Positions 10,187 to 33,202 of a DNA stretch of 64,000 nt are shown here, one piece after another. Each line of letters opens with the position of its first letter. Position 1 is the first letter of the stretch. Under the pieces are notes generated by a model. The model was given only the letters and a program-made list of their open reading frames with translations. It was not told the origin of the DNA and searched no databases. Source of the DNA: an uncultured Methanoregula sp. (lineage in GTDB: Archaea; Halobacteriota; Methanomicrobia; Methanomicrobiales; Methanospirillaceae); assembly GCA_963662735.1 (NCBI GenBank), contig OY759744.1, forward strand, positions 970,153 to 1,034,152, in the 5' to 3' direction. The position numbers and the translations under genes were made by a program.

Positions 10187-10322
10187 ACTGCCATTCGGCA
10201 CTGGTGGTATTGCTCTTTCTTTTTCCCAGGTACTTCCCGGAATTTTTCCAACAGGTGTATATCCTGGGGAACTATTTTTCAAAAAAGCTCCGGCCCATTC
10301 GTGCCGCAAAAAAAGAAAATGA

Positions 10323-10652
10323 TCAGGCCACTTTGAGCAGGATCTTTTTGATCTTTGCAACCGCTTCCGGTGCCGGGTTGCATCCCGGACAGACCCCTTC
10401 CCCATGCGACAGGATCTGTCGAACCTCCCCTGCTGTAATTTTTGAAAACGGGATATTGTCCCATACCTTCTGGTCGATGGTATTCCAGGTACACTGAAGT
10501 AAGTGCAGCAGGAGTTCGACGTCATTCTCGGAAAATGATTTCCACTCCGCACCGATTCCCTGCTGCATCAGCTTCATTGAACCTTCCACGGTCTTTTCGC
10601 GGTGTACATGGTACAGCCGCCTGCCCACCTCGGCCTGGGTAACATCCGGCAT
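10323..10652 (-). CDS. hypothetical ~109-aa protein, paralog of 10830-11165
   Basis: The ORF track extends to 10766. I use the internal ATG 10652 (MPDVTQAEVGRRLYHV...) because it aligns with the paralog N-terminus MPRTSNDTLGRRRFQL.... Shared blocks are AEW(K/Q)SFS and W..(6)..W....F(S)(K/R)(I/L)T...(V/I).(Q/D)IL. Confidence 0.55.
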   Translation of the reverse strand: MPDVTQAEVGRRLYHVHREKTVEGSMKLMQQGIGAEWKSFSENDVELLLHLLQCTWNTIDQKVWDNIPFSKITAGEVRQILSHGEGVCPGCNPAPEAVAKIKKILLKVA

Positions 10653-10829
10653 GTCTGTTCCTCCACTCCATTCTGGGATGATGAGTGAATCCCGCTGTGC
10701 AACCATAAACTTTGTGGCCGATCTGCCGGGAGTGCGGAGGAACAACCATTCCTGTTCCACCGTCACCGGCCGGCCACGGTAGGGAAAATACTATTACCAG
10801 GCACGGGATAATTCCGATACAGTGCAGCT

Positions 10830-11165
10830 ATGCCCCGTACCAGCAATGATACGCTTGGGAGACGGCGGTTCCAGCTCCTGAGGCAACAGGCGGTCGAGGA
10901 TGCAATAGAGAAGATACGGCATGCCCCGGCTGCAGAGTGGCAATCTTTTTCCCGAACCGACTACACGCAACTCCGTGAAATCCTGGGAGACCTGTGGGTT
11001 CACCTTGAACGGGAGAAGTGGGCCCGGTACGCATTTTCCCGGCTGACCCGGCAGGATATCCAGGATATCCTCTATCTTGGTGGCAGTGCACCGGGTCACA
11101 CACTCACTCCCGACATCCTTGTCGGGATGGATGCGATCCTTTCGCACTCCCGGTCCCCCGGATGA
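10830..11165 (+). CDS. hypothetical 111-aa protein, paralog of 10323-10652
   Basis: See the paralog entry. Transcribed divergently from it across a ~177 bp gap. Confidence 0.55.
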   Translation: MPRTSNDTLGRRRFQLLRQQAVEDAIEKIRHAPAAEWQSFSRTDYTQLREILGDLWVHLEREKWARYAFSRLTRQDIQDILYLGGSAPGHTLTPDILVGMDAILSHSRSPG

Positions 11166-13590: not shown

Positions 13591-15330
13591 ATGATTACGG
13601 GAACAATTTCACGGATCTCGGGCCCGGTGATTATCGCCAAAGGCATGAAAGGGTCCAAGATGTACGACGTGGTGAAGGTCGGGGCCGAGGCACTCCGCGG
13701 CGAGATCATCCGGCTCGAGGGCGATGAATCTGTTATCCAGGTGTACGAGGATACTACCGGTCTTACGCTGGGCGAGAGCGTGGAGAATACCGAGACCCCG
13801 CTCTCTGTTGAGCTTGGCCCCGGGCTCCTTGCCTCCATCTATGACGGCGTCCAGCGCCCGCTGCCGGTGCTCCTTGCGCTGAGCGGAGACTTCATCGGCC
13901 GTGGCATCTTCGCCCCGGGACTTGACCGGTCGAAGAAGTGGGAATTCGTGCCAGTGGTGAAAGTGGGGGACGCGGTCGGTCCCGGCGATATCATCGGTAC
14001 CGTTGCGGAATTCCAGTTCGAGCACCGGGTGCTTGTTCCCCCGAAAGTTGCCGGCAACGTTGCCGAGATCCGGGCCGGTTCGTTCACGGTAGAAGAGATT
14101 GTCTGCGTTCTCGACAACGGGGTCCGTCTCCCCATGATGCAGTCCTGGCCGGTCCGGATTCCCCGGCCCCACAAGAAGAAGCTTGACCCGGTCCTGCCGC
14201 TTATAACCGGGCAACGGGTCTTCGACTGCATGTTCCCGGTGACAAAAGGCGGGACCGCGATGATCCCGGGTGGTTTCGGAACCGGGAAGACCGTCTCTGA
14301 GCAGACGCTTGCCAAGTGGTCGGACACCCAGGTAGTGGTCTATATCGGGTGCGGGGAGCGGGGCAACGAGATGACGGATGTGCTCGCAGAATTTCCCGAG
14401 CTCATCGATCCCCGGACAAAGCTCCCGCTGATCCAGCGGACGATCCTGATTGCCAACACCTCGAATATGCCGGTTGCTGCCCGCGAAGCCTCGATCTATA
14501 CCGGGATCACCATCGCGGAGTATTTCCGGGACATGGGATACGACGTGGCCCTGATGGCGGACTCGACTTCCCGCTGGGGCGAAGCGCTGCGGGAAGTCTC
14601 GGGCCGGCTCGAAGAGATGCCGGGCGAGGAAGGATACCCGGCCTACCTCGCGACCCGGCTCTCGGCTTTCTACGAACGGGCCGGCCGGGTCGTCACCCTT
14701 GGCACCATTGAGAGAAACGGTTCAATCACCGTGGTCGGGGCAGTCTCCCCGCCCGGCGGGGACTTCTCGGAGCCGATCACCCAGAACACGCTCCGGGTGG
14801 TCGGGACGTTCTGGGCCCTTGACACGAACCTTGCCTACCGGCGCCACTTCCCCTCGGTGAACTGGATCAAGAGTTACTCGCTCTACCTTGACAGCATCGC
14901 GGAATGGTACAGCAAAACGATTGCCCGCGACTGGCGGGAACTCCGGGAGAAAGCGATCTACCTGCTCCAGAAGGAAGTGGAGCTGCAGGAGATTGTCCAG
15001 CTGGTGGGTCCGGATGCCCTGCCTGACAGCGAGAAGGCGATCCTCGAAGTGACACGGATGATCCGCGAGGATTTCCTCCAGCAGAGCGCCTACAGCGACA
15101 CCGACTCGTTCTGTCCCATCGAGAAGCAGTACCTGATGCTCAAAGTGATTATATCATACTACGATCAGGTGATCCTTGCGATGAACCGGGGCATCAGCCT
15201 CCGGCAGATCCAGGCGCTCCCGCTGAAGGCCACCATCGGGAGGATGAAGGAGGCCGGTGAAACGGATGCGATCCGGCTGATCATCGATGAGATCAGTACA
15301 ACCTTCCCTGCCCTGGAGGTGGAGAAATGA
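13591..15330 (+). CDS. atpA: A1AO ATP synthase catalytic subunit A
   Basis: 579 aa with P-loop GGFGTGKT and conserved A-subunit blocks. Confidence 0.97.
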
Positions 15331-19582: not shown

Positions 19583-20086
19583 CTATCCCAGTGCTGCTAC
19601 GGTGTCTGCCCAGGTCTCGACCCTGCTCCGGATCGCTTCATCGGAATACGAGGTAAGGGTCACCTGATCCCGGCTGAAGTTGACGAAGTAGAGCTCGCCG
19701 TTGGCATCGTGGCATTTTAGGGTGGCGGTGAACTTCTCGTTGTCGCGGTCACGGATCGGTGTCCCGCCGATCGTGGTCGCGATCTCCGTGTCTGCAACAA
19801 TGCGGTTGGCGACACTGGTGAACGCTGCGATGGTAGGCGTCCTGACCGTGATGAGGGCGATGGTCTTTGCATCGGAGTCCTGGTAGAAGATCCGTGCGGT
19901 GTAGCCCTGTTTGGTGCGTTCTACCGGGGGGTGGTTCACTCCCTGTGCATTGTAGGAAACGCACTGGAAGGGGTTGTTCGCAATGACGCCCTGGACAAGG
20001 TTGTCGAAGGCAGTCACGTCTGCGAGCGGGGCCGCGAGTTTGCGGACCGCGCTCTTCGTGGTGTTGCTTGTCGTAAAGTCTGCCAT
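19583..20086 (-). CDS. hypothetical 167-aa protein, no recognisable family
   Basis: I use ATG 20086 (MADFTTSNTTKSAVRKL...) rather than the 20278 start in the ORF track. Composition is balanced and not low-complexity. Confidence 0.55.
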   Translation of the reverse strand: MADFTTSNTTKSAVRKLAAPLADVTAFDNLVQGVIANNPFQCVSYNAQGVNHPPVERTKQGYTARIFYQDSDAKTIALITVRTPTIAAFTSVANRIVADTEIATTIGGTPIRDRDNEKFTATLKCHDANGELYFVNFSRDQVTLTSYSDEAIRSRVETWADTVAALG

Positions 20087-20205
20087 TTCTGGTCTCTCCT
20101 TTCTTGTCTGCCGGGGAGTTCTCCGAACTTCCCGGTGGTTTGTCGCGGGGCGCCCTTTGACATACCAATGTTGGCACTCATAGGGTATATCCCAAAAAAG
20201 GAGAA

Positions 20206-20904
20206 TTAAACCGGGGCTGGTACGGGCCGCGGTGGGGAAAAGGGGCAGGGAGCGCTTCGCGCCTGCTGTACCGGGCATGCCGGTGCAGCAGTTTTTGGAA
20301 CGGGCGCAGGAACAGCGTCCGTTTTCATGATCTTCTGCATAGTTACAACGTTCCCGATACCCCAGTCATAGACCCGGTAGCGGAGCAGGCCCTTCTCGCG
20401 GGAGAAGATCCAGAACTGGAGGTTGTCGGCATGCGACTTCCAGTGCGACTCCATCTGCCGGATCTCCTGTTCGTAGAGTTCCGCAACATTGGCAGCGTTC
20501 CGGACGGGATCCCGGGGCAGGACAACCCGGACAAGGAGGGAGTCCTGGTGATTCCAGGCATCGAGGTTGAAGGGGAACCCGTCTTCATGGTTCCGGAAGA
20601 CCCGGTAGCCTTCCGCTTCCAGGATGCGTACCGCTTCTGGCAGGCACCGGGGGTTATGCATCCCGGCGGGTTTTTTCGTCTTCGACCTCACGGGAAGTTT
20701 TCGCTCTTTTTTCCCCGAGGGGTGGTTCTTTTTGCTTTTCACGGTGTGGCGGGACGGATTCACCTTCCCGCTTGCCGCCGGTGCCCGGCCTGATGCCGTG
20801 CCGGCGGTTCTGGTAATCCTGGTGTTCGTGTGCATACTATCATTGCTGGTTCTCTCCGACAACGGTACTTGTACCCAGGCAGCGTTTCTGTTCGTTTCCG
20901 GCAT
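20206..20904 (-). CDS. hypothetical protein with a basic disordered N-terminal part and a C-terminal domain of nuclease-fold-like topology
   Basis: The C-terminal block LPEAVRILEAEGYRVFRNHEDGFPFNLDAWNHQDSLLVRVVL resembles the alpha-beta-beta-beta core of Hjc/PD-(D/E)xK folds but lacks the E-x-K. The start is uncertain: the ORF track start 20931 is TTG, and in-frame ATGs occur at 20904, 20835 and 20661. Confidence 0.45.
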   Translation of the reverse strand: MPETNRNAAWVQVPLSERTSNDSMHTNTRITRTAGTASGRAPAASGKVNPSRHTVKSKKNHPSGKKERKLPVRSKTKKPAGMHNPRCLPEAVRILEAEGYRVFRNHEDGFPFNLDAWNHQDSLLVRVVLPRDPVRNAANVAELYEQEIRQMESHWKSHADNLQFWIFSREKGLLRYRVYDWGIGNVVTMQKIMKTDAVPAPVPKTAAPACPVQQARSAPCPFSPPRPVPAPV

Positions 20905-21359
20905 GAAGCTCCCTGTGCAGTCACATCCCAAAGATTCCGTTTACGGGATAGTCTGTTGTGCGATACGTCCCACAGTGTCTTTCCGGGTTTCATCCGTGAA
21001 ACACTGTGTTATTCTAAAAAAAGAATCATTTTTGGATTTAAATATAGAGGATGGGAGGGGTTAGAGGAATGGGTGGGATGGGTTGGAGATCGGGATTGTT
21101 GAAGGAGAGTGTGTGAGCCGTCCGAGATCAGGATTCGGTTCCTGGGGAATCAACGATTCCTGCTCCTGATTAATTCCCCGTTTACTTACACGACCAAATC
21201 CATTCTAAGTATATACAATGTATACACACAGCATTTTGTGCCAAATGCGTAAACTCCGATTAACTTAGAACCGTGATTTTATGATAGATGAACCAAGTTT
21301 TCGTTGTAAGTGTTTTGGCGAATCAAGAACGGCAGGAGAACTTGTGTGAGAACGTCAGC

Positions 21360-22451
21360 TTAGCTCACTTTAAGTAATCCCGATTCTGAAATTATGGAAT
21401 ACATATCATCGAGTAATGTCGCGGAAACATTTGTATCCACGCAATCTGCGCATAATGCACTACGATTATAATGTACGAGTAATCTTATAAAAAAAGGGGC
21501 TTGGCAATGTTTTTTAGGAATATTTCTCTTACATGAGTTTAATAAAATTCTTCTAAAATACTGTAATCTATTTTCACAGTTTAGATCTGGCATAGATAAG
21601 GCCATGATTCTGAGTTTTGCATCGATTGAAGAATATTTAAACCGTATTGCCAATTTCTCGATATTATCTCCTTTTGGTAACCGGACATTAAATTGAGATC
21701 TCAAAAAAGTGATAGGATCCTCAAGATAGATTGTAAAATTAAATATTGAGTCAATCCCGAGATCGTTATCCTGTAGTTCCAAATTGTTACCATATTTATC
21801 TTTAATAATTTCTAAAATTCTCGATTTAATTGCTTCAATTGTCAATTCGGGATTTATCTCTACAACAAAGAAGTCATGTTCTTCGTCGATCGGCTCCATG
21901 CGTTTTTGGTAAACGTAAATAACTTTTTTATGCTCAGCGTAATATTCACCCGTATCTTCAATTATTTTTAAAAATTTAAATGAAATTTTAGGAAATTCTC
22001 GTTCCAATTTATCATGGGAACTTTTTAGCGCCATATATCCGCATACTTTTTTGAACCCGCCTAGCACTTCCAATTTGAATGGTGATAACCGAAGGATATC
22101 TCTCGTCTCTTTTCCGGTCGTAATTGCGTCTGTCAGAAGGATATTACTTTTATCAAAATTAAACACAGAGAAAAAATGATGTTCCATCGAATGCTGGCCT
22201 CGATGGCTGAGTGGTTTAATGGAAATAATAGTGCGCATTCTCTTAATGCTGTTTAGATAAGGATGGAATAGGTTCAATCCTTTGCGTTCGACAGCGATTA
22301 TGTTCGTTTCTTTATCCTGAACAATTTCTTTAATAAAAAAAGGGAAGAGCTCGTTGTCAATCGCATTTGCTAATCTTAGTGATTCTTCATCCGAAATGTA
22401 CCCCATTTGATTTTTTATTGTTATTGAGTCTTCAGTTGAGGATTTATCCAT
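21360..22451 (-). CDS. PRTase-like (phosphoribosyltransferase-fold) domain protein with an uncharacterised Cys-containing C-terminal domain
   Basis: 363 aa in AT-rich DNA. It has a NIIAVERKG segment and a PRPP-loop-like motif SNILLTDAITTGKETRDIL. The C-terminal ~200 aa are unassigned, with Cys clusters SCKRNIPKKHC and LCADC. Confidence 0.6.
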   Translation of the reverse strand: MDKSSTEDSITIKNQMGYISDEESLRLANAIDNELFPFFIKEIVQDKETNIIAVERKGLNLFHPYLNSIKRMRTIISIKPLSHRGQHSMEHHFFSVFNFDKSNILLTDAITTGKETRDILRLSPFKLEVLGGFKKVCGYMALKSSHDKLEREFPKISFKFLKIIEDTGEYYAEHKKVIYVYQKRMEPIDEEHDFFVVEINPELTIEAIKSRILEIIKDKYGNNLELQDNDLGIDSIFNFTIYLEDPITFLRSQFNVRLPKGDNIEKLAIRFKYSSIDAKLRIMALSMPDLNCENRLQYFRRILLNSCKRNIPKKHCQAPFFIRLLVHYNRSALCADCVDTNVSATLLDDMYSIISESGLLKVS

Positions 22452-22522
22452 CTCTTTATATTTTACGTATTTTTGATTTGTATCTTCCGAATACTGATAA
22501 ATAATTAAAACATAAGTTATAC

Positions 22523-22537
22523 GTTCAAATTTTGAAC
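22523..22537. promoter_or_regulatory. inverted repeat GTTCAAA-t-TTTGAAC in the divergent intergenic region
   Basis: 7-bp arms with a 1-nt spacer, between the PRTase-like gene and the wHTH gene. Candidate operator. Confidence 0.25.
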
Positions 22538-22740
22538 CTAATGCCCAAATAATAAACTATATAACCAGAAAAGAAGACATTATGGATAGACCTACTTTCA
22601 TGGTCGTGTTCCCATGAAGCCATGGGAGCAATCAGTAAAAAGTGGGACTATGACAACAACCTTCTCTCCAACTGAACCCCACAGTTTATGAGAAATCCGT
22701 ATGCGGGTTAGGTTAAGGAGACGTTGATAGATTGACATCT

Positions 22741-23025
22741 ATGTTAAAAAATCCCTTGTCCAACGAGTTAAAAGTGGCAACCGAGATATTCGGATGCCAA
22801 GAGCGGGGAGAGAAGGTCTGGCTTGGTAAACTCCAGGCAAGCTTAAACGGAGAGATCAGTAAGAACACGGTCTCTGCGGCACTGGATACCCTGTTTGACT
22901 GGGGCATTATCAAGGCAGAGTACGGCGAGACGGAAAATGGAAGGGCGGGACGATTGCTGATGATCAGCAACGAGTCAACCCCCATGATTAAAGAACTCTA
23001 CGAAAAATACTGGAAAAACCGATAA
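22741..23025 (+). CDS. small winged-helix DNA-binding protein
   Basis: 94 aa. ...ISKNTVSAALDTLFDWGIIKAEYGETENGRAGRLLMIS resembles a recognition helix plus beta-wing. ATG 22741 is used because the ORF track start 22732 is TTG. Confidence 0.55.
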   Translation: MLKNPLSNELKVATEIFGCQERGEKVWLGKLQASLNGEISKNTVSAALDTLFDWGIIKAEYGETENGRAGRLLMISNESTPMIKELYEKYWKNR

Positions 23026-23035
23026 GCAGTGAGAT

Positions 23036-23818
23036 ATGGATACCTCTATTTTTCCCAAGTATGAGTACAAGGGGATTACCCATCCCCAGAAGACCATTCT
23101 TGTCGCGGTTTCCAAATATGCGGAGAGCTTCCTGCGGTTTGCTCCGCGGAAGATCCAGAATTTTCCCTCCCACGGGGTTGATCATTCTGTCAGTATCATC
23201 CGGATGATCAATTCCTTTCCTGAAGAATGGGGGATCAAACTTACGAGAACCGAGCGGTTCATTCTCTATGCAGCAGCATGGCTCCATGACATCGGCTGCG
23301 TGAAGGACCGGACCCCGCACAACAAGATCTCGGTTGACATCCTGATGAACAGCGAGAGCATCTGCGATTCCTTCAACCGCCTGGACAGCGACCTGCTCTT
23401 CATCCTTGAGTATGTCATCGAGAGCCACTCCTCATCGTATGACATCAGCACGGTCCCAGCGAAACGGGGAGCAGTACGGGTCCGTCTCATCTGTGCGATC
23501 TTCCGGCTGCTCGATGCGTGCGAGATCACGAACTTCAAGTGTCCTGCCTCGGTATATGCCGAGATTAAGGACGACCTGAAAACCCCGGATGGATCGGTTG
23601 ATACTGATGCTATCGAGTTCTGGGAAGGGCACATGAACATCAAAGATCTCGGGTTCTTCAAACCGGAGATTGTTGTTCTTGTCAATCATGCCCGTAAGAG
23701 CAAGAAGATCACGGACCGGCTGGTCAAGGAAATTGAATCTGTGCAGGAGATCTTTCGCGAGAATGGGATGGATGTGCCGGTTGTAAAGGTCAAGGCGAGA
23801 ACAGCTGGGATTGATTGA
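23036..23818 (+). CDS. HD-domain metal-dependent phosphohydrolase
   Basis: HGVDHSVSII ... AAAWLHDIGCV ... ESHSS ... FRLLDACE, an H..H / HD / H / D pattern. Starts 10 nt after the wHTH gene. Confidence 0.7.
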   Translation: MDTSIFPKYEYKGITHPQKTILVAVSKYAESFLRFAPRKIQNFPSHGVDHSVSIIRMINSFPEEWGIKLTRTERFILYAAAWLHDIGCVKDRTPHNKISVDILMNSESICDSFNRLDSDLLFILEYVIESHSSSYDISTVPAKRGAVRVRLICAIFRLLDACEITNFKCPASVYAEIKDDLKTPDGSVDTDAIEFWEGHMNIKDLGFFKPEIVVLVNHARKSKKITDRLVKEIESVQEIFRENGMDVPVVKVKARTAGID

Positions 23819-23841
23819 AAGAAAATTGGTAATTCAGAAAA

Positions 23842-24933
23842 TTACTCCAAATAAAACTGATCAATTAACGGAATATCTTTCTTTTTTAGATCAAAAAAGC
23901 TCTTGTATTGGTCATCAAGGTTATCATAATGGGACAATATCCAATCAACCAGACTATCCTGATCAATAAGTTTGATATTCTTTTTTCCCGAGGCCTCCGC
24001 CTCTTCAATGGCAGGTCTAGTAAATGTACCTATAGTAACAATTGCTCCGTGTTCATCCGTTCCAAGGGCACCCCGTAACTGAAGCACAACAGTATTACCA
24101 ATAGGTTTCGGAACCTGCTTTACTTGGACCTTTAAATCAAGGGTGACCAATTCAGTCGAAAGATACCCGTCTATATCAATTCCTTTATCGCCGACATATT
24201 GCCTGTTTGCTGCTTCGAAACCACTTATACTGAGTAAATGGGAGGTAAATTCTTCAAACTGTCTGGGGTTCATGCTCAACAAACGCTCTATGATACGACT
24301 ATGAATATCTTGTCCGGTTACTTGTGTTATTGGATTCTGCAGATTTGCCGAAGATTTCTCTGATATCAAGGATTCAACTTCGATCTTATGTTCTTCGAGA
24401 GATATAACTGTCAACCAGACAAGTGAGTTTTTCAGTTTAGTGGAAAGTTCCGAACGGGGTATTGATCGTACCCACTCAACATTCCGCCGGTTCGTATATG
24501 GGCATTTGTCACCCCAGTTTTCCTTCCACTGGTAATCACCGCTGATCCGACCGATGATCACTGATCGTTTCGAAGGATTGGGTAAAAGGAAGATATCGCC
24601 ATGTTTGATAGTTCGGACAAAACGGAGGATTTCACCACACTGGATCCCGACCTGGCTGTTGGTGACATTCTCATAGATGCGTTTATGGAGCACTTTCAGC
24701 TTTTTCAGTGCATCCTCTTCAGACGCTGATGATAGCAGCCAGCTGAGGTCCCCGAGTTCATTCCAACCAATGGCGATGAACTTTTTGGAATATCCTTCAT
24801 CGACATATTTTCCCCCCTCGCCAAGCCTGATGCCCCAGTATGCGGTCATGTGGATCAGAGGGGTATTGGTTAAAGGAGGATATAAGAGGATATCAAATCC
24901 ATTTTTTTGTGTATTTAGAATAGTTATACTCAT
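23842..24933 (-). CDS. Mrr-family (type IV) restriction endonuclease with an unassigned N-terminal domain
   Basis: The C-terminal FEEFTSHLL...GDKGIDIDGY...LKVQVKQ...LRGAL...GAIVTIGTFTRPAIEEA matches the Mrr catalytic core. The N-terminal ~170 aa carry a FIAIGWNELGDLS motif. Alternative start at ATG 24849. Confidence 0.75.
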   Translation of the reverse strand: MSITILNTQKNGFDILLYPPLTNTPLIHMTAYWGIRLGEGGKYVDEGYSKKFIAIGWNELGDLSWLLSSASEEDALKKLKVLHKRIYENVTNSQVGIQCGEILRFVRTIKHGDIFLLPNPSKRSVIIGRISGDYQWKENWGDKCPYTNRRNVEWVRSIPRSELSTKLKNSLVWLTVISLEEHKIEVESLISEKSSANLQNPITQVTGQDIHSRIIERLLSMNPRQFEEFTSHLLSISGFEAANRQYVGDKGIDIDGYLSTELVTLDLKVQVKQVPKPIGNTVVLQLRGALGTDEHGAIVTIGTFTRPAIEEAEASGKKNIKLIDQDSLVDWILSHYDNLDDQYKSFFDLKKKDIPLIDQFYLE

Positions 24934-25504
24934 CTAATAATTTCAAAATGGGTTTTTTAGGATTAATTACTTCAGTTTTTAATTGTTCAACTTGTTGTTT
25001 TGAAATCCGACTAAATTTTAAGTATTTTCCTGCGGGATCGTTTGAATAATGACAATGATACGCTCTCGCAATTTTATCATCCCAAATCGGGAAAAATGAT
25101 GGAGCTAATAGATGCAATGTCTTTGCAACAGATACCGGACTTCTCGATCCTTTTTTTGTGCCCTCCTCAATCTGAAGGGCAACCAAAAAATCCAGAAAAA
25201 TTAAACGCAACAATTTCTCATCTGATTCAGACAGGGTAGTTATCTCTCTATTTCTCAGGATAGTAAGTTTGTCAAAATGTTTAACGAGACATTGTTCTAA
25301 ATCATCAAAATTAAAAAACCCATAACGGTAGAAAGCTTGGTTCCAGGTTAAAAGCAAAACTCCCAAACCATCGGTCATATCGGTGAAATTTCCCCAATTT
25401 TCTTTGATCAATTTTGTTGCAACTTTATACATTGCATCTCGTTTTTCGTGTTTTTCAAATTCCTCACAACCCTTTTGGAATTCATCGAATTGAATTTTCA
25501 GCAT
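24893..25504 (-). CDS. hypothetical 203-aa protein
   Basis: AT-rich helical protein, family not recognised. Its ATG lies 6 nt downstream of the stop of an hsdS remnant. Confidence 0.55.
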   Translation of the reverse strand: MLKIQFDEFQKGCEEFEKHEKRDAMYKVATKLIKENWGNFTDMTDGLGVLLLTWNQAFYRYGFFNFDDLEQCLVKHFDKLTILRNREITTLSESDEKLLRLIFLDFLVALQIEEGTKKGSRSPVSVAKTLHLLAPSFFPIWDDKIARAYHCHYSNDPAGKYLKFSRISKQQVEQLKTEVINPKKPILKLLDEYNYSKYTKKWI

Positions 25505-25510
25505 AAACGA

Positions 25511-25663
25511 TCAAACCCCACCCGCCACCTGCTTGACCACCGCCCCCGCCAGCCGCGCCTGAACACCCGCCCTCTCTTTGAACTGTGATTCGAGGGCATC
25601 GCAAATACGGCGATCTTGTGTGCGCGAAAAGCTGGGTTCCAAATGAAGTTTCAGATGATGGAT
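25511..25663 (-). pseudogene. hsdS 3-prime remnant 1
   Basis: Hand translation gives IHHLKLHLEPSFSRTQDRRICDALESQFKERAGVQARLAGAVVKQVAGGV*. The intact HsdS C-terminus reads ...PHLNVGDVKNFQVPLPPLAEQHRIVAKVDALMALCDALESCLKERAGVQSKFATAVVKQIGSM*. The remnant is a GC-rich patch in AT-rich surroundings. Confidence 0.8.
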
Positions 25664-26072
25664 TTACTGACATTCCAAAGCTCTATCAATGAGATAATAA
25701 TATATTATTAATATGCCGAGCTCGACATTTCAGTTCATTATGAAGAATCCCCCAACAATTTGCTTAGGTGGGGGAATACTGCTGTCACTCGCTGGGAATC
25801 CTCTCGGGGGTGCGGCACTTATAGTGATCGGTGTGTTCCTTGCAATCGCGTAACTGACATAAATCCGAACCGTCGCTATTCACAAGGATATCGATTCTGT
25901 ACCTCTGGGATTAAATATCCGCCGAGCACTTTTTTTTACATCCTTCTCAACCTTCCCAGTATCGAACCGAAGGATGTTTTGATGGTATACCTCATCTGTG
26001 CGGAGAATTACGAGCCAGAACCAAGAATCATAATGAAGGGTTTTATAATTAATTATTTCCATTTAGATACTT

Positions 26073-26390
26073 ATGATCATTGGAACTGAAATGCCGACAG
26101 CAGAAAGGCAAACACTTGAAATAAAAGATGGGGAATTCATTCTCAAGAAAATCCCGCGAAGCGACACTGGAGGCGGGAGACTCAATATTGATAAAGTAAA
26201 TGAAAAATGGCATATACAACTTCATACTCCGAAGGGCGAAATTTATGATTTTATTCCGCTTCAATTCGACGATACAAAAATCAACGATGCAGTTTACATA
26301 AAAACAGCGCTAGAAAAGGAGGCCGGGGATGGGGGCGCTGACAAATTATTGATAATTGGTGGGGAACAAATGTGGAAAAAGCAAGAATAA
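26073..26390 (+). CDS. hypothetical 105-aa protein
   Basis: The only sizeable ORF between the two hsdS remnants, and on the strand opposite to its neighbours. No recognisable motifs. Confidence 0.35.
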   Translation: MIIGTEMPTAERQTLEIKDGEFILKKIPRSDTGGGRLNIDKVNEKWHIQLHTPKGEIYDFIPLQFDDTKINDAVYIKTALEKEAGDGGADKLLIIGGEQMWKKQE

Positions 26391-26417
26391 ACCAAAATTT
26401 TGATTAGTGCTTTAATA

Positions 26418-26565
26418 TCATCCCATCACCTGCTTCACCACCGTCCCTGCACTCCCGCCCTTGCTTGGAGTTGTGATTCAAGGGCTCGAAGAAACCTGAG
26501 GTTTCTTCTCAAGGCACAGAGCGCCACATCGCACAACGCCAATCTGCGTGTAATGAGGGCAACGA
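26418..26565 (-). pseudogene. hsdS 3-prime remnant 2 (frameshifted, interrupted by a hairpin)
   Basis: Reads ..LALCD-[hairpin insert]-ALESQLQARAGVQG, then a -1 shift, then TVVKQVMG*. A perfect 9-bp stem gaagaaacc-tga-ggtttcttc lies at 26488-26508. Confidence 0.7.
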
Positions 26566-26590
26566 AAACATGCGTATTGAAAAAGGGGGG

Positions 26591-27247
26591 TTACTGTTCT
26601 GCATCTTTCAGTCGTTCAAACTCCAAGCCGGGAATCTTGATTTTACTTGCAAAAGGTAATAAAAATAGCCCTAAAACAACTCCAATTAATGCAATTTGTT
26701 CCGTTTTTAAAACAAGGAAACCGGTAAGATTCAAGATTAAAATAACAAGGCTACCGAATCCGAGAATCCAACATACTAACTGAAAATTTTTAATTGCATT
26801 TTCCTTTTCATTTAACAACTCAAAAAGCGTTTTCTGACGGGCACTATTCTTTAAAATTGAAATTTTTGGGATTTGATCGGATGAGAAAAAATCATATGAA
26901 TCAGCATCATCAGGATCTTGTTTTATTCGAGTTATTTCCAACGGTGTGTCTTTACTTTCGTTAGGATAAACAACAAATAATGGAATATCTTGATTTTTCA
27001 ATAATGACGCATATCTTTTTAATTGAAATTCCGCATCTTTTTCACGTTTTCGGTCTTTTCGACTTTTTATTTCAAATAATGCAATGGGTTTGTTGAGGAG
27101 TTTATCGATGATAGCTAAATCCACACGATAATGATGCCCATTGGACTCAATTGGCCATTCAAGGGCGATTGAATCCTCGGAGACCCCTTGATGTTTTAGG
27201 GTTTCAATTAAAATATTAACAAGTTCTCTTTCGTGAAATTCTCTCAT
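26591..27247 (-). CDS. PD-(D/E)xK (HsdR-N-terminal-like) nuclease-fold domain fused to two C-terminal transmembrane helices
   Basis: The N-terminal HHYRVDLAIIDKLLNKPIALFEIKS gives a D...E-x-K arrangement. The C-terminal helices are WILGFGSLVILILNLTGFLVL and IALIGVVLGLFLLPFA. Its ATG lies 1 nt after the hsdS stop. Confidence 0.65.
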   Translation of the reverse strand: MREFHERELVNILIETLKHQGVSEDSIALEWPIESNGHHYRVDLAIIDKLLNKPIALFEIKSRKDRKREKDAEFQLKRYASLLKNQDIPLFVVYPNESKDTPLEITRIKQDPDDADSYDFFSSDQIPKISILKNSARQKTLFELLNEKENAIKNFQLVCWILGFGSLVILILNLTGFLVLKTEQIALIGVVLGLFLLPFASKIKIPGLEFERLKDAEQ

Positions 27248-27248
27248 A

Positions 27249-28877
27249 TTACATCGATCCTATTTGTTTTACTACGGCAGTAGCGAATTTACTTTGCACT
27301 CCCGCTCGCTCCTTCAGACATGATTCCAAGGCATCGCACAACGCCATCAGCGCATCAACCTTCGCGACGATGCGGTGTTGTTCGGCGAGCGGGGGGAGAG
27401 GGACTTGAAAATTTTTCACATCTCCCACATTTAAATGAGGTGATGAAGTTCCGCCAGTCTGCTCTTTTACTTTCATTTGCACAAATGGGGAATTTAATAA
27501 AATTAAAATATATTTTGGAATTGCTTTTTTTGGATTGACTCTTAGGAGCATCATCCGTTGGCCTAAACACGTTTTCAATCCTTTCGGGATCATACAAGCA
27601 ATCCCTAAAATTCCTCCCTCTCTACTAAACAAAATATCATTTTCACGAGGCTCTAATCTTGAAATTCTTTCAAGATATGTATCATGCGAAACATACCTTA
27701 CTTCAGTTAGATCCAAATAACCCGGTTTAAAATTTGTCGTACGTAAACAAATCTCCCCATTTTGAGTCCATTTTGGTGTGGAGTGCGGACAATCAACAAT
27801 GGTCTCACACACCCCGTTAATGTTATCCCATTGCCAAGATTGTGGAATATTTAAACGATATCCAATATCTGTAGAATCCTCTTTGACAAAAGAAACAAGA
27901 GGGATGCTTGATCCCTCATCTTTCGGCTTTAGTATTAACCGTCCTTGGATCGCCATTTGTAAAATTGTCTCCCGAAGCATCCTGGCATTCTCCGGGCAGT
28001 CAAAGATCAACTCAAAAGCATCACACACCTGCGCCCATTGCCGTTCAAATTCCTCCGGACTCTCTGAACTCTGCAATGCTATGAGACTCGCAGTCCCAAG
28101 CCGGAGGCTGACTGCCCGCTCCTGCAGTTGTTGAAATTCGATTTCATCACACAACGCCATCAGCGCTTTAATTTTAGCAATAATGCGATGCTGTTCAGCT
28201 AGAGGGGCAATTGGAATAAGGGTATTATTAGCAAAACTAAGATTTATCCCCCCCTGGGCAGCGCCTTTAAAATTTTCGAGTATTCGTGTTTGACCGATTT
28301 CAGAATACAGGTAATAAAAAGCAAATTGAGGAGTAATAAAATCATAAAAACGGCAAATAAAAACATGCTCATTAATGCATGCTTCGGAGAATGGAAATCT
28401 GGAATCAACAAGAGAGACCTTACCGGTTGTTGCACCATCTTTTACAATGAGAAGATCTCCTGTCCGGATTTTTCCTTTTGTCATTTTTTGATAAAACTCA
28501 GGAGAAACGAATTTAATTGTACCAAATCTGAATCCCCCCCTTCCATCAAGATGCTCCCCACCTATACTAGGTATACCTGATTTGATCTCTCTTACTCCAC
28601 CTATTGGTCTCGAACCGGATTCTATAGATGATAAAACGTCAATTAAGGGCAATTGAATCCAGGATTTTGGGAGAATATGTGACTCATCCTCGGAAATATA
28701 CTGAAACTCCTTATGTAATGATGTCTCTATCATTTTTTTCGCGAACTCATCATTTGCATCTTGGGTACCAAGCCTTCCTGAAAAAGCTAAATCGAGGATT
28801 AGATTTCGTAGCTGGGCGATGCCCTCCGGGGCAGTGGCGAGCGTGGTGAACCGCTCGAATAGGAGATCGGTGCTCAT
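27249..28877 (-). CDS. hsdS: Type I restriction-modification specificity subunit HsdS
   Basis: 542 aa with two AT-rich target-recognition domains. These are separated by conserved coiled-coil repeats: central LAPLAEQHRIIAKIKALMALCDEIE and distal LPPLAEQHRIVAKVDALMALCDALE. Confidence 0.93.
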   Translation of the reverse strand: MSTDLLFERFTTLATAPEGIAQLRNLILDLAFSGRLGTQDANDEFAKKMIETSLHKEFQYISEDESHILPKSWIQLPLIDVLSSIESGSRPIGGVREIKSGIPSIGGEHLDGRGGFRFGTIKFVSPEFYQKMTKGKIRTGDLLIVKDGATTGKVSLVDSRFPFSEACINEHVFICRFYDFITPQFAFYYLYSEIGQTRILENFKGAAQGGINLSFANNTLIPIAPLAEQHRIIAKIKALMALCDEIEFQQLQERAVSLRLGTASLIALQSSESPEEFERQWAQVCDAFELIFDCPENARMLRETILQMAIQGRLILKPKDEGSSIPLVSFVKEDSTDIGYRLNIPQSWQWDNINGVCETIVDCPHSTPKWTQNGEICLRTTNFKPGYLDLTEVRYVSHDTYLERISRLEPRENDILFSREGGILGIACMIPKGLKTCLGQRMMLLRVNPKKAIPKYILILLNSPFVQMKVKEQTGGTSSPHLNVGDVKNFQVPLPPLAEQHRIVAKVDALMALCDALESCLKERAGVQSKFATAVVKQIGSM

Positions 28878-30331
28878 CGTGTATTCCTAGTAGGTGTCCC
28901 GAGCAATGCCATCAGTTCCTGCTTCAGCGCTTCACGGGCCATCTCTGCTTCGACCCTAACCCTCTCATACTCGCGGAGCAGTTCTTCAGGATCGCCTTGT
29001 TTGTCCGGCACAATGTTTGGGTTCTTTATGTCGAGGTTAAATCCGTTCGCAATAATCTGCTCTATCGACACCCGCCATGCATGCTCGTTCTCGGTGCGGT
29101 TCGTCCACCATGCCTTCTCAGGTTCGAACTCTGCTATCCGGATCGGCTTTGTCTTTGAGTACGACTTATAGCCCTCGGGATAGGTGTGTTCATAGTACCA
29201 GATTTCTTTTGTAGCCTTGCCTTTCTCGAAGAAGAGGAGGTTCGTTCTCGTTGGGGTATATGGGGCAAAGACATTTTTGGGCAATCGAATTATGGTATGG
29301 AGGTTGCATTCGGTCAGGAGTTTCTCCTTGATCCGGCTCTTCACACCCTCGCCAAAGAGCGTTCCGTCGGGGAGCACGATCGCGGCCCGGCCGCCATCTT
29401 TGAGGATGTGCATGATCAGGACAAGGAAGAGATCGGCCGTCTCCCGGGTCTGGTACATGGACGGGAAGTTGGTCTCGATCCCGTCCTCCTCCATGCCGCC
29501 GAACGGCGGGTTCGTCACGATCACATCTACCCGGTCCCGTGCCGAGTAATCCTTCAGCGGGCGGGCAAGGGTGTTGTCATGCTTGATCTGGATCGGGACA
29601 TCGATGCCGTGCAGCATCATGTTCGTGACGCAGAGCAGGTGCGGCATCGGCTTCTTCTCGACCCCGTGGATCGAGTTCCGGAGCAGTTCCTCGTCTTTCG
29701 GGTTCTTAACCGTTTTCCGGATATTCTCGATGGCACAGGCAAGGAACCCGCCGGTACCGCAGGCCGGGTCAAGGATCGACTCGCCAAGCTTCGGGTCCAC
29801 CTGATCCACCATGAACTGCGTCACGGCCCGGGGTGTGTAATACTCCCCGGCATTGCCCGCACTCTGGAGGTCTTTTAAGATCTTCTCGTAGATCTCCCCG
29901 AACAGGTGACGATCCTCGGTCTTGTTGAAATCGATCTCATTGATCTTGTTCGCAACCTGGCGGATCAGCGTCCCGTTCTTCATGTAGTTGTACGAGTCCT
30001 CGAAGACCTTGCGGATCAGGATCCCGGAACCATTGAGGCCCGCTTCCGCAGGGAGTTCTTTGAGGGTCGGGAAGAGGTCGGCATCAATGAACTTCAGGAG
30101 CACGTCGCCTGTGATCCCCTCGGCATTGCCCGCCCAGTTCCGCCACCGGAGCCGTTCCGGCATCGGCGACCGGTACCCCTTCTTCATCAGCTCGTACTCT
30201 TTTTCCTTGTCATCGAAGATCTTCAAAAAAAGCATCCAGCCGAGTTGGCTGATCCGCTGGGCGTCGCCATCGACCCCTGCATCCTTCCGCATGATGTCCT
30301 GGATCGTCTTGATCGTGGTTCCGACTGCCAT
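28874..30331 (-). CDS. hsdM: Type I R-M DNA methyltransferase subunit HsdM (N6-adenine)
   Basis: HsdM N-terminal domain, SAM motif DPACGTGGFL and catalytic NPPFGG. Overlaps the hsdS start by 4 nt. Confidence 0.95.
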   Translation of the reverse strand: MAVGTTIKTIQDIMRKDAGVDGDAQRISQLGWMLFLKIFDDKEKEYELMKKGYRSPMPERLRWRNWAGNAEGITGDVLLKFIDADLFPTLKELPAEAGLNGSGILIRKVFEDSYNYMKNGTLIRQVANKINEIDFNKTEDRHLFGEIYEKILKDLQSAGNAGEYYTPRAVTQFMVDQVDPKLGESILDPACGTGGFLACAIENIRKTVKNPKDEELLRNSIHGVEKKPMPHLLCVTNMMLHGIDVPIQIKHDNTLARPLKDYSARDRVDVIVTNPPFGGMEEDGIETNFPSMYQTRETADLFLVLIMHILKDGGRAAIVLPDGTLFGEGVKSRIKEKLLTECNLHTIIRLPKNVFAPYTPTRTNLLFFEKGKATKEIWYYEHTYPEGYKSYSKTKPIRIAEFEPEKAWWTNRTENEHAWRVSIEQIIANGFNLDIKNPNIVPDKQGDPEELLREYERVRVEAEMAREALKQELMALLGTPTRNTR

Positions 30332-30361: not shown

Positions 30362-32665
30362 TCAGCACTCGGCGGTATAGAGACACCGTTCGAGCCGGCG
30401 TATTGCTTCCATATAGTTGGCGCTCCCGCCAAAAATAGTGTTCACAATCTCCATCGGTGTACCGAAGGTTGTGAACGGATCCACCTTCAGCACTTCCATG
30501 TTCTCAATATCGCCGATCCCGCCATCGGAGTATTTCGACAGGAGGGCATCCAGTACCTTCCGTGCCTTGTCGCCGTACTTCGTGAAGTAATCCGCTTTCC
30601 GGACCTTTGCTGCCCGTTCCCTGCGGGACAGGGGTGGCTGGCCGAAGACCACGTGGCAGATCAGGTCGAAGGGATCGTAGTCCTTCCCCACCTGCTCCTG
30701 GAGCGCCTCGAAGAGTACGCCTTGCTCCTCCAGTTCCTCCAGGATCACCGTCTTCTGCTCCGCCTTCGTCCACGAACTCATGAACGCATTCAGCGTAGCA
30801 TACTGCCGGGTCACATTCTTCTTCGTATAATCTTCCAGCGACTCCGTGATCAGCTTCCCGTCGGCCGCCATGTACTGGACGCGCTCGGCAACCACAGAAA
30901 CCGGCACATCGTTCACCACGTACCGCCTCATCCCGTCTCCCGGTGGCTTGGGTGCGGGAGGATCAATCGGATCGGTCGGGTCGTACTGGCTCCCGTCAAG
31001 CGGTTCGCCGTCAAAGTCCGGGTCGGCAAAGAGCTCGCTCACCTTCCGGAAGTCCATGATCGTGAAGAAGAACTTGTTGTAATCCTCGTTGATCCGGGTC
31101 CCCCGACCGATGATCTGCTTGAATTCGGACATCGATTCGATCCGTTTGTCGATCACGATCAGCTTGCAGGTCTGGGCATCCACGCCGGTCCCCATCAGCT
31201 TCGAGGTGGTTGCAATGACGGGATACTTGGAATCCGGCATGATGAAGTTGTCCAGTTCTGCCTTCCCGTCCGGGCTGTCGCCCGTGATCCGGACAACATA
31301 CCTGCCGTTCTCCTTCACCAGATCCGCGTTCTCGTTCACGAGACAACTCCGCATTCGTTCGGCGTGATCGATATTCTCGCAGAAGACGATCGTCTTGTCG
31401 TACCTGCCGGTGTTCTTGAGGAAATCCGAGATCTTCCGGGCCACGAGTTCCGTACGGTGCTCTAGGACAAGGCTCCGGTCGAAGTCCTTCTGGTTGAAGA
31501 TACGGTCCTCGATCTCCACGCCGTACTTGTCCTTCTGCCCCCGGGTTGGTCGCCATCCCTGCAAATCCTTGTCCAGATCGATCCGGTACACCCGGTACGG
31601 GGCAAGGAACCCGTCTTCGATCCCCTGCTTCAGTGAATATTCATACACGGGCTTCCCGAAATAATGGACACTGGAGACGTACTTCGTCTCCTTCGGGGTC
31701 GCTGTCAGCCCGATGTGGGTAGCCGATGAGAAATAGTCGAGGATTTCCCGCCACATCGCATCGTCCGCAGCACTTCCCCGGTGGCATTCGTCGACAATGA
31801 TCAGATCAAAGAAGTCCCGGGAGAACTGCTTGTAGATGTTGCGCTCCTCCTCGTTGCCGGATACTGCCTGGTAGAGTGAGAGATAAATCTCGTAACTCTT
31901 GTCCACCTGCCGGTTCGCGATCTTCGTCATTGCCGACCCGAACGGCTTGAAATCGTTCGTCTTGGTCTGGTCGACAAGGATATTCCGGTCCGCAAGGAAC
32001 AGGATACGCTTCTTGGTGCCGGACTTCCAGAGCCGCCAGATGATCTGGAATGCCGTATAGGTCTTGCCGGTCCCGGTGGCCATCACGAGCAGGACCCGGT
32101 CCTTTCCGTTCGCAATCGCCTCGATTGTCCGGTTGATCGCGTTTATCTGGTAATACCGGGGCATCTTCCGGATGTCGTCGATATAGTAACTCTGGGTGAT
32201 GATCTGCTCTTTTTTGTCGTCGATCCCTTTCCATTTCCGGTACCGGGTCCAGAGGTCAGTGGGGCGGGGAAATTCGGTAAGTGAGAGTTCCCTCTCCATG
32301 GGCTCATAATTGCCGGAACGGTCGTGCAGCAAAAACCCGTCACCATTGGAACTGAACACAAACGGGATATCCATCATTTCTGCATAGGCAAGAGCCTGCT
32401 GCATCCCGGCTCCCACGATATGCGTGTTGTCCTTTGCCTCGATCACGGCAATCGGCAGATTCTGTTTATAGTAAAGAATATAGTCCGCCCTTCGCGGCTT
32501 GGCGCGGCTCACGGAGTTGCCATTCACAAGAACCCGGCCATCGGTGACGTTCACCTCTTCCCGGATCTGGTGATGGATGTCCCAGCCGGCCTGGGTCAGT
32601 GCGGGTGTAATGAATTTGGTGCAGATGTCCCGCTCCGTCAATGCCTTCTTGTCCAGTCCAACCAT
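30362..32665 (-). CDS. hsdR: Type I restriction enzyme R subunit HsdR (EcoEI-like C-terminal domain)
   Basis: N-terminal PD-(D/E)xK (ADYILYY...IAVIEAKD), helicase motifs (MATGTGKT, DECH), and an EcoEI_R_C-like C-terminus. The ORF track start 32692 is TTG, and I prefer ATG 32665 (MVGLDKKALTERDICTKFITPAL). Confidence 0.93.
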   Translation of the reverse strand: MVGLDKKALTERDICTKFITPALTQAGWDIHHQIREEVNVTDGRVLVNGNSVSRAKPRRADYILYYKQNLPIAVIEAKDNTHIVGAGMQQALAYAEMMDIPFVFSSNGDGFLLHDRSGNYEPMERELSLTEFPRPTDLWTRYRKWKGIDDKKEQIITQSYYIDDIRKMPRYYQINAINRTIEAIANGKDRVLLVMATGTGKTYTAFQIIWRLWKSGTKKRILFLADRNILVDQTKTNDFKPFGSAMTKIANRQVDKSYEIYLSLYQAVSGNEEERNIYKQFSRDFFDLIIVDECHRGSAADDAMWREILDYFSSATHIGLTATPKETKYVSSVHYFGKPVYEYSLKQGIEDGFLAPYRVYRIDLDKDLQGWRPTRGQKDKYGVEIEDRIFNQKDFDRSLVLEHRTELVARKISDFLKNTGRYDKTIVFCENIDHAERMRSCLVNENADLVKENGRYVVRITGDSPDGKAELDNFIMPDSKYPVIATTSKLMGTGVDAQTCKLIVIDKRIESMSEFKQIIGRGTRINEDYNKFFFTIMDFRKVSELFADPDFDGEPLDGSQYDPTDPIDPPAPKPPGDGMRRYVVNDVPVSVVAERVQYMAADGKLITESLEDYTKKNVTRQYATLNAFMSSWTKAEQKTVILEELEEQGVLFEALQEQVGKDYDPFDLICHVVFGQPPLSRRERAAKVRKADYFTKYGDKARKVLDALLSKYSDGGIGDIENMEVLKVDPFTTFGTPMEIVNTIFGGSANYMEAIRRLERCLYTAEC

Positions 32666-32710
32666 CCCGTGATTCTTCTGTATCTCTGACAATCCGCTAA
32701 TACCTTTCTA

Positions 32711-32780: not shown

Positions 32781-33202
32781 CAGCCAGACCCTGCTTCAAA
32801 AATTCCAGTCGCGATCACGATCCCGATCAAAAACCGTTCGCAGATCAATCGAACCTTGATTTGAAATTTTCAATCAAACCTTGATTAAAAAATTTCAACC
32901 AGACTTTGATTGAAAATTTTTCAGCGAACCTTGATTGAAAAACCGCACTCGCGATCCCGCGTCCGTCGTGAACTGGAAAAATAAACGTATGCACAAGTGG
33001 TTAACTTTTCACAACCAGACCTTGATTGAAAATTTTCAGGCAGACTTTGATTTTTATTTTTCAATCAAGCTTTGATTTCAAAATGTTAATCGCGATCATG
33101 ATCGCGATTGAAAAACCGATCCGGATCAATCAAACCCTGATTTGAAATTTTCAGTTAAACCTTACTTGAAAAATTTTAACCGGACTTTGATGACAAAAAG
33201 TT
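32781..33202. repeat. array of eleven degenerate ~25-bp AT-rich units (CA-N5-6-A[CT][CT]TTGATTGAAAATTTT)
   Basis: Units by eye: 32781-32805, then four contiguous at 32841-32944, three at 33010-33087, and three at 33127-33202. No ORF covers this region. Confidence 0.85.
33088..33109. repeat. perfect 22-bp palindrome AATCGCGATCATGATCGCGATT
   Basis: Its reverse complement is identical. Related CGCGATC elements occur at 32808-32830 and 32948-32961, each between blocks of the 25-bp units. Confidence 0.85.

Follow-up and report, generated by a model that had tools for sequence, protein, structure and literature searches.

A predicted membrane-anchored PD-(D/E)xK nuclease encoded behind hsdS in Methanoregula: a possible stand-alone defence gene

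The subject of this analysis is ORF218, an open reading frame (ORF) on the minus strand of a 64,000-nucleotide (nt) stretch of DNA from an uncultured Methanoregula sp. (contig OY759744.1; the whole stretch is called the window below). ORF218 encodes a protein of 218 amino acids (aa) in which a PD-(D/E)xK nuclease domain of the HsdR N-terminal type is followed by a linker, a predicted transmembrane (TM) hairpin and a short conserved tail, and it stands at the end of a minus-strand Type I restriction-modification (R-M) operon with the order hsdR-hsdM-hsdS-ORF218. In the reading favoured here, which is tentative and falls just short of an even chance, ORF218 would be a stand-alone, cytoplasm-facing, membrane-anchored defence DNase that is co-expressed with hsdRMS without being a subunit of the R-M enzyme. 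The position and length of the ORF had been given in an earlier sequence-only reading, from which the strand was missing, and were confirmed. The gene and the parts of its product are arranged as follows.

26591..27247, minus strand: ORF218, whole gene, ATG start, 218 codons and TAA stop
26918..27247, minus strand: PD-(D/E)xK nuclease domain of the HsdR N-terminal type, residues 1-110 (Pfam, AlphaFold2, Foldseek, conservation)
26783..26917, minus strand: variable acidic linker, then a basic juxtamembrane helix running into the first TM helix (TM1), residues 111-155 (alignment, AlphaFold2)
26648..26782, minus strand: predicted two-helix TM hairpin, residues 156-200 (hydropathy, AlphaFold2, conservation)
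26591..26647, minus strand: conserved tail, predicted to be cytoplasmic, residues 201-218 and stop (SKIKIPGLEFER here, KLKILGxEFER in the family)

Comparison of ORF218 with its two closest homologues yielded ratios of nonsynonymous to synonymous substitutions (dN/dS) of 0.07-0.18, and thus purifying selection acts on the reading frame. An exhaustive HMMER search over 1.84 billion cluster representatives returned 386 representatives at E<=1e-3, of which 212 reached E<=1e-10. With few exceptions, these proteins are 200-225 aa long and match from end to end. This exhaustive search was needed for the full family, as a word-indexed protein search had disclosed five close relatives at first and 28 later. 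Judged by the dN/dS values, the size of the family and its conserved length and architecture, ORF218 is a real gene, and a chance ORF is ruled out. A protein with 100% identity (P0001) bears the name 'type I restriction enzyme HsdR N-terminal domain-containing protein [uncultured Methanoregula sp.]'.

The nuclease core recognised in the sequence-only reading was recovered by several methods. Both motifs on which it had been based, VDLAIID and PIALFEIKS, are found in the translation, and residues 9-86 matched the Pfam domain HSDR_N_2 (PF13588) with 27.2 bits at a cutoff of 25, while the score for HSDR_N was slightly under its cutoff; these were the only Pfam matches. An AlphaFold2 model calculated from six close homologues alone was poor (predicted local distance difference test, pLDDT, 56) and was replaced by a model based on 140 family sequences, which reached a pLDDT of 88.8 and a predicted template modelling score of 0.79, with pLDDT values of 92-97 in the nuclease domain. 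The elements of this domain are a first alpha helix (residues 6-19), beta strands at 27-35, 38-48 and 53-60, a further alpha helix at 66-82 and beta strands at 90-95 and 103-108. In the model they form the alpha-beta-beta-beta-alpha-beta core of the PD-(D/E)xK superfamily, with the acidic residue on the second and the (D/E)xK motif on the third strand, by which the domain is assigned to this superfamily. A structural comparison by Foldseek, proposed earlier as a check, related the domain to the solved structures of DrdV, BpuSI, Cas4 (4r5q), a 'restriction endonuclease-like' protein (3ijm) and Card1 with probabilities of 0.90-0.99 and, among predicted proteins, to viral PD-(D/E)XK, Cas4-like and HsdR_N proteins; overall, the probabilities for solved and predicted PD-(D/E)xK nucleases were 0.9-1.0. 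The family profile also matched the catalytic segment of BpuSI with D..E-x-K aligned. The putative active site of ORF218 comprises E30, D43, E59-x-K61 and Q75xxxY79, the last of which we take to be the QxxxY motif of RecB and HsdR. When the protein was aligned by hhalign with the N-terminus of the HsdR encoded in the window, D43 corresponded to the D of RADY, E59-x-K61 to EAK and Q75 to Q. A replacement of a defective HsdR nuclease by ORF218 was considered and ruled out, since the resident HsdR keeps D..EAK..Q.

Conservation was counted in 140 full-length representatives that are 22-38% identical to ORF218. The counts bear on the catalytic D/E/K positions, for which conservation among homologues had been expected, and on one position of the membrane module.

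D43: 138 of 140
E59: 135 of 140
D48: 128 of 140
K61: 125 of 140
E30: 105 of 140, and D in 10 more
Q75: 101 of 140
Y79: Y in 75 and F in 20 of 140
P198: 137 of 140

The full E-D-E-K-Q-Y set is present in 49 of the 140 representatives, and most of the others deviate from it at one position. The conservation of D43, E59, K61 and Q75xxxY across such diverse proteins argues for retained catalysis. In one member, P0132, the C-terminal module is retained (hhalign probability 99.6) and the D/ExK residues are absent from the N-terminal part. It was considered whether P0132 represents a fusion of the module with an unrelated N-terminal domain, but hhalign hinted at a possibly degenerate PD-(D/E)xK domain instead. 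Most members lie under the Pfam threshold (P0007, P0056, P0065 and the protein of locus L035 fail E<=0.01 for HSDR_N_2), which places the family at the edge of this model. NCBIfam and PHROGs contained no match for the ORF218 family, and PADLOC-DB v2 gave no significant system match, the best value (E=6e-4) being a domain-level similarity to Cas4. Hence, as already suspected, the architecture is not a described one: although the fold itself is known, the architecture and the family are, by these database comparisons, uncharacterised and absent from defence catalogues, with nothing specific in PADLOC, NCBIfam and PHROGs and a domain match only in Pfam.

The linker and the two hydrophobic C-terminal helices noted previously were confirmed. 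The linker region contains indels, e.g., a 28-aa insert in P0004 and P0005, and was modelled with low confidence, apart from a single long helix comprising residues 129-174; a second helix was modelled at 183-199. The hydrophobic helices proper extend from about 156 to 176 and from 184 to 200, with Kyte-Doolittle means over 19 residues of up to 2.3, and both are hydrophobic throughout the family. The loop between them has exactly seven residues in 135 of the 140 members. Conserved positions of the hairpin are F155, C159, W160, L172, D173, L185, G189, L194 and P198. With its preceding residues, the tail motif of the family reads PFASKLKILGxEFER; K202, K204, G207, E209, E211 and R212 are each kept in 103-124 of the 140 proteins, and the model shows a beta-hairpin at 202-211 (strands 202-205 and 208-211). 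The TM module and the tail are thus conserved as strongly as the active site. The mean net charge in the family is +2.2 for the 20 residues before TM1, -0.3 for the loop and +1.5 after the second TM helix. According to the positive-inside rule, this pattern indicates that both ends, and therefore the nuclease domain, face the cytoplasm. The predicted topology is N-in/C-in with the catalytic domain oriented toward the cytoplasm.

The genes upstream of ORF218 and the junction with hsdS are listed below.

27245..27251, minus strand: junction of hsdS stop and ORF218 start, TAA-T-ATG
27249..28877, minus strand: hsdS, 542 aa, two target-recognition domains (TRD), Pfam Methylase_S
28874..30331, minus strand: hsdM, 485 aa, Pfam N6_Mtase and HsdM_N
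30362..32692, minus strand: hsdR, EcoEI-type, 776 aa, with ResIII/Helicase_C motor, EcoEI_R_C and its own HSDR_N nuclease domain, all intact

The tight coupling to hsdS described earlier holds to the nucleotide: the TAA of hsdS (27251-27249) and the ATG of ORF218 (27247-27245) are separated by the single base 27248. The sequence AGGA is located within hsdS, 11-14 nt 5' of the ATG. Directly 3' of the ORF218 stop, at about 26580-26590, CCCCCC is followed by TTTTT, and this oligo-T run is a possible archaeal terminator closing the operon. Similar arrangements exist in three further lineages. P0004 (55% identity; L001/L002) overlaps hsdS by ATGA, P0002 (70% identity; L007, L030, L031) follows at a distance of 1 nt genes that were confirmed to be hsdM and hsdS, and the ATG of the member in L035 (35% identity) overlaps the hsdS stop (TGATG); the HsdR of L035 is only 45% identical.

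These four lineages are a minority. Approximately 28 distinct loci were examined, and in about 24 of them the family gene is not accompanied by hsd genes, tblastn with HsdR, HsdM and HsdS giving no match in flanks of up to 10 kb. The co-occurrence with hsdS that had been anticipated is thus recurrent without being general, and the earlier suggestion of an R-M subunit or membrane tether did not stand up to this survey, since the loci outside the four lineages share no partner either. The non-hsd loci consist of 19 loci in GTDB genomes and of L003-L006, L008-L010, L034, L036 and L037; the 19 were found by means of a single C-terminal motif derived from a 24-sequence subset and undercount the family. 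The GTDB loci belong among the archaea to Nanoarchaeia and a second Methanoregula, and among the bacteria to Pyrinomonadaceae, Bacteroidales, Neomarinimicrobiota, Formimonas, Eubacteriales, Oscillospiraceae, Lachnospiraceae, Deltaproteobacteria, Spirochaetia, Treponema, Fibrobacterales, Photobacterium, Saccharibacteria and Gammaproteobacteria. The distribution is patchy and covers Methanoregula, Nanoarchaeia and more than ten bacterial phyla, and the sequence features of the family are the same in hsd-linked and non-hsd loci.

Neighbours of the defence type comprise AIPR, SIR2_2, a DpnII/MboI restriction endonuclease, PLDc_2, DUF4145, DUF3644, DUF4268, AAA_16 with NTP_transf_2, a DrmD-like SNF2 helicase, a prokaryotic Argonaute (pAgo) with SIR2-APAZ and several PADLOC candidate systems. 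Transposase neighbours are of the IS256 family, DDE_Tnp_1 and rve, of which DDE_Tnp_1 adjoins the copies in L006 and L009. Other copies lie beside housekeeping genes (purA, purB, an NrfD/molybdopterin oxidoreductase operon, polysaccharide synthesis genes). By a qualitative count from per-protein scans, a recognisable gene of the defence type is present within three genes in at least nine of the 24 non-hsd loci. Among 114 neighbours within three genes on either side in the 24 non-hsd loci, no recurrent family was found beyond helix-turn-helix, pentapeptide and transposase domains, which argues for a single-gene system with no fixed partner. Neither 72,556 plasmids nor 50,697 phage genomes (tblastn) nor IMG/VR yielded a family copy, so that an origin from a phage or plasmid lacks support. 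Two of the non-hsd settings show additional features. A Spirochaetia chromosome (L008/L019) carries two diverged family copies 10 kb apart (10001-10633 and 19915-20526), and behind each of them an IS256-family (Transposase_mut) gene is encoded on the opposite strand. A 107-aa ORF, for which no family match was obtained, overlaps with the first copy. The homologue P0006 (L003-L006; 56% identical) ends within TM1, apparently through an insertion sequence (IS) with DDE_Tnp_1, and its island contains SIR2_2, DUF1016/YhcG and a pentapeptide-repeat/ion-channel protein but no hsdS.

Downstream of ORF218, two remnants of an hsdS 3' end were detected in the window.

26438..26590, minus strand: degraded remnant of the conserved C-terminal region of hsdS, directly 3' of the ORF218 stop (tblastn E=0.005)
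25510..25606, minus strand: second hsdS tail remnant, well preserved and of high GC content, encoding ICDALESQFKERAGVQARLAGAVVKQVAGGV and a stop, ending 6 nt before the ATG of orf203

The degraded remnant has DNA homology to the remnant tail in L001. In the second one, tblastn of HsdS matched 25606..25523 with 68% identity (E=2e-6), and its DNA is 87% identical to the L001 remnant tail, both being high in GC. By contrast, the functional tails attached to an ORF218-type gene have a different, shared ending (...QSKF..AVVK.IGS). The L001 remnant, 126 nt at 10742-10869, directly follows the ORF218 homologue and is 76% identical to HsdS residues 500-541; in L030, an hsdS tail remnant at about 3566-3708 is followed at once by an Mrr_cat gene. 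Thus, in three genomes the ORF218-type gene has a functional hsdS tail on one side and a displaced one on the other. Comparing the window with L001, HsdR is 94% and HsdM 90% identical, HsdS only 37%, and the synonymous divergence (dS) is 1.47 for ORF218 against 0.55 for hsdM, an almost threefold difference which indicates allele exchange and no co-divergence. Remnant tails, dS contrast and HsdS divergence together point to recombination in the hsdS repeat. The 3' part of hsdS with ORF218 may have been brought in or exchanged as one piece in this conserved repeat, the old tail being displaced downstream. This suggests that the hsdS 3' repeat could be a recombination hot spot for swapping in coupled passenger genes. 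Originally, an Mrr-type enzyme was probably encoded next after hsdRMS.

An active, membrane-tethered DNase is predicted from the fold, the complete set of catalytic residues and the orientation toward the cytoplasm. The lack of a partner, the patchy spread, the neighbourhoods of defence and mobile genes and the recurrent placement within Type I operons characterise the gene as autonomous and most likely defensive. On this basis we infer nuclease activity, a role in defence and a spatial discrimination of self and non-self. In the proposed mechanism, the C-terminal hairpin would insert into the cytoplasmic membrane with both ends inside, and the catalytic domain, on a linker of about 45 residues and a helix, would be cytoplasmic but held at the membrane. 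The tether would keep a sequence-nonspecific nuclease off the chromosome and at the entry site of foreign DNA, and the hairpin together with the beta-tail may serve to oligomerise or gate the enzyme, whereby two active sites could cut double-stranded DNA. Here and in three other lineages the gene would have recombined onto the 3' end of hsdS, becoming co-transcribed and translationally coupled with hsdRMS, and ORF218, embedded in the operon, would act alongside the restriction enzyme as a second line of defence.

Two characterised systems give precedents for a membrane-tethered nonspecific nuclease that protects on its own and is prevented by its tether from damaging the cell, ShdA (PMC10270631) and SNIPE (PMC13190303). 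ShdA of the Shield system is a membrane-bound RmuC-domain nuclease of the restriction-endonuclease-like type in Pseudomonas, which alone is sufficient for defence and becomes genotoxic when its anchor is lost (PMC10270631). ORF218 would share with it the organisation as a single, cytoplasm-facing, membrane-anchored nuclease with a restriction-endonuclease-like fold. However, ShdA consists of about 520 aa with RmuC (PF02646) and an N-terminal single TM segment, whereas ORF218 belongs to a family of about 215 aa with a C-terminal two-helix anchor and without RmuC in Pfam or PADLOC; moreover, ShdA is confined to Pseudomonas, while the ORF218 family occurs in archaea and many bacterial phyla, and there is no sequence homology. 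SNIPE, likewise encoded by a single gene, is a membrane-bound nuclease of the GIY-YIG type by which phage DNA is cut while it is being injected, and its anchor region is poorly conserved (PMC13190303). The common concept would be that the tether spares self DNA and meets incoming DNA. The GIY-YIG domain and the DUF4041 domain, which binds DNA and the tape measure protein (TMP), were not detected in ORF218, and the anchor of SNIPE is N-terminal, unlike the conserved C-terminal one of ORF218. Both systems are accordingly regarded as probable analogues, not as homologues. With its predicted nuclease and anchor, its single gene and, judged qualitatively, a setting among defence and mobile genes, ORF218 resembles the functional class of membrane-anchored defence nucleases.

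Several observations weigh against the favoured reading of a tethered defence DNase. An accessory DNA-binding or phage-sensing domain was not found in ORF218, and PADLOC gave nothing beyond weak Cas4 and mad2 domain matches. Several loci are flanked by housekeeping genes alone (purA, purB, the NrfD/molybdopterin oxidoreductase operon), and the apparent enrichment of defence genes is qualitative. Finally, the TM hairpin and the tail are no less conserved than the active site. As the SNIPE anchor is poorly conserved, the high conservation of the ORF218 module indicates that it is probably more than a tether. A more far-reaching proposal is doubtful: the family would be a hitherto overlooked, minimal single-gene immune system of archaea and bacteria with a protein of about 215 aa, in which an HsdR-type nuclease is joined to a portable, highly conserved module of TM hairpin and beta-tail that gates or oligomerises the nuclease at the membrane. 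In Methanoregula the cassette would enter the conserved hsdS 3' repeat by recombination, duplicating the hsdS tail, and Type I loci would serve as acquisition platforms for passenger defence genes coupled to them in translation.

The conserved C-terminal module also sustains the main rival, an abortive-infection or membrane effector, of which the former had been raised in the sequence-only reading. Here the hairpin and the beta-tail would form a pore or depolarise the membrane upon oligomerisation, while the PD-(D/E)xK domain would mainly act as a sensor to which invading DNA, a DNA end or a viral product binds, catalysis being secondary. The near-fixation of P198, the seven-residue loop, the KLKILGxEFER tail, the single-gene, defence-island-like setting and the retention of the module in P0132 without the D/ExK residues are in line with such a function. 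On the other hand, near-invariant D43, E59 and K61 together with QxxxY are most simply explained by catalysis, P0132 is the only catalytically degenerate member encountered, and the hairpin is short, with two helices whose oligomerisation is a supposition here; this effector is hence considered unlikely. Distinctly unlikely is a role outside defence, be it an addiction or toxin module that stabilises a mobile segment or a membrane-bound nuclease for DNA processing in uptake, repair or transposition. It would account for the transposases often found next to the gene (IS256-family in Spirochaetia, DDE_Tnp_1 beside L006 and L009), for solitary insertions within housekeeping operons (L012) and for the duplicated hsdS tails around the gene, but a conserved antitoxin-like partner is missing, no copy was encountered on plasmids, phages or IMG/VR contigs, and the cytoplasmic orientation speaks against an uptake nuclease acting outside the cell.

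Very unlikely, finally, is that ORF218 belongs to the Type I enzyme as an accessory subunit or membrane tether, which would be stoichiometric with HsdS and would dock the complex to the membrane or contribute another cutting site. Translational coupling to hsdS in four lineages, by 1-nt gap, 4-nt overlap or 1-nt overlap, and an operon that apparently ends in the oligo-T run past ORF218 would agree with a subunit, but an obligate association with hsd genes is contradicted by the 24 or so loci in which hsdR, hsdM and hsdS are missing from the surrounding 10 kb, and the resident HsdR retains its own nuclease motif so that there is nothing to complement. The duplicated hsdS tails and the dS of ORF218 relative to hsdM are those of an exchanged passenger and not of a co-evolving subunit, and unrelated genes (SLFN/AlbA ATPase, Mrr) have been inserted in the same operons. 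In the architecture of EcoR124I and EcoKI, HsdR docks to the methylase via its C-terminal part and the nuclease domain is uninvolved. The homology of ORF218 to precisely this nuclease domain therefore also argues against a subunit. On membrane localisation of Type I enzymes, a limited literature search found nothing usable.

As to the individual relatives of its parts, ORF218 shares the fold and the order D...E-x-K...QxxxY with the RecB-like nuclease domain of HsdR (HSDR_N_2, PF13588; HSDR_N, PF04313), but it lacks the superfamily 2 (SF2) helicase motor (ResIII/Helicase_C) and the C-terminal assembly domain and has the TM hairpin and beta-tail in their place. The best structural matches, Cas4, Card1/Can2 and the Type IIG enzymes DrdV and BpuSI, have the D-ExK core in common with ORF218, and Cas4 also has QxxxY. 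The likeness is restricted to the level of fold or domain, since an iron-sulfur (Fe-S) cysteine cluster, CARF, a methyltransferase and a TRD are missing in ORF218. PADLOC similarity to Cas4 did not exceed E=6e-4 to 1e-2, the single conserved cysteine, C159, lies in TM1, and no cas genes were found near ORF218 in the window. For the embedding itself there are parallels, as TgvAB of V. cholerae, RloF of C. jejuni and PrrC are defence genes in Type I R-M operons that are independent of HsdR (PMC11411939). As in ORF218, an unrelated defence gene would be inserted in and co-expressed with the hsd operon. These systems, however, encode GmrSD-like or anticodon nucleases between hsd genes, whereas ORF218 is located after hsdS, between duplicated hsdS tails, and is predicted to be membrane-anchored.

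The surroundings of the operon contain further genes. ORF218 lies in an island with 33-45% GC across about 21000-28900, compared to about 57% for hsdR, hsdM and the flanks, that also holds the Mrr/PDC-S02 and HD-CE genes; no tRNA was found at the island flanks. The remnant hsdS tail of the window is split by an insert of approximately 0.9 kb (25607-26526). On the plus strand, this insert contains a 105-aa ORF (26073-26390) convergent with ORF218, for which there was a weak PHROG match and no match in Pfam, NCBIfam or PADLOC. Orf203 (24893-25504, minus strand), beginning 6 nt past the stop of the second remnant, has no family match and overlaps by 41 nt the gene of a 363-aa Mrr_cat protein (23842-24933, minus strand; PADLOC PDC-S02, E=2e-64), with which it possibly forms a two-gene Type IV-like module. 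An HD-CE/HD-domain gene (23036-23818, plus strand) and an unannotated gene of 363 aa (21360-22451, minus strand) complete this section. The pair is also present in L030 (4726-6420), where it lies downstream of the hsd genes and is 72% identical in DNA sequence, and the window and L030 appear to share a low-GC island with a variable slot adjoining hsdS. Another embedded passenger, an SLFN_AlbA_2 and HATPase_c_4 gene, is located between hsdM and hsdS in L001 (6535-8205). Just upstream of hsdR (32845-32942 in the window), a sequence of about 80-100 nt was noticed of which L001 has several copies (1972-2642, 14910-15106), tandem or dispersed and 74-87% identical; a short repeat element or a repeat with a regulatory role is conceivable.

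If the favoured reading of a tethered defence DNase is true, the membrane-tether principle would have been invented independently a third time in this family, after ShdA and SNIPE. Only recently has it been shown with these two that membrane tethering can separate incoming from own DNA independently of marks by sequence or modification. The ORF218 family would be distinguished from them by its HsdR/RecB-like fold, its much smaller size, its unusually conserved C-terminal membrane module and its occurrence in archaea. To our knowledge, no membrane-tethered defence nuclease of this kind has been described in archaea. The small size of the protein and its clear motifs make it easy to test. Beyond the protein itself, the duplicated hsdS tails point to a specific way in which Type I R-M operons may gain translationally coupled passengers.

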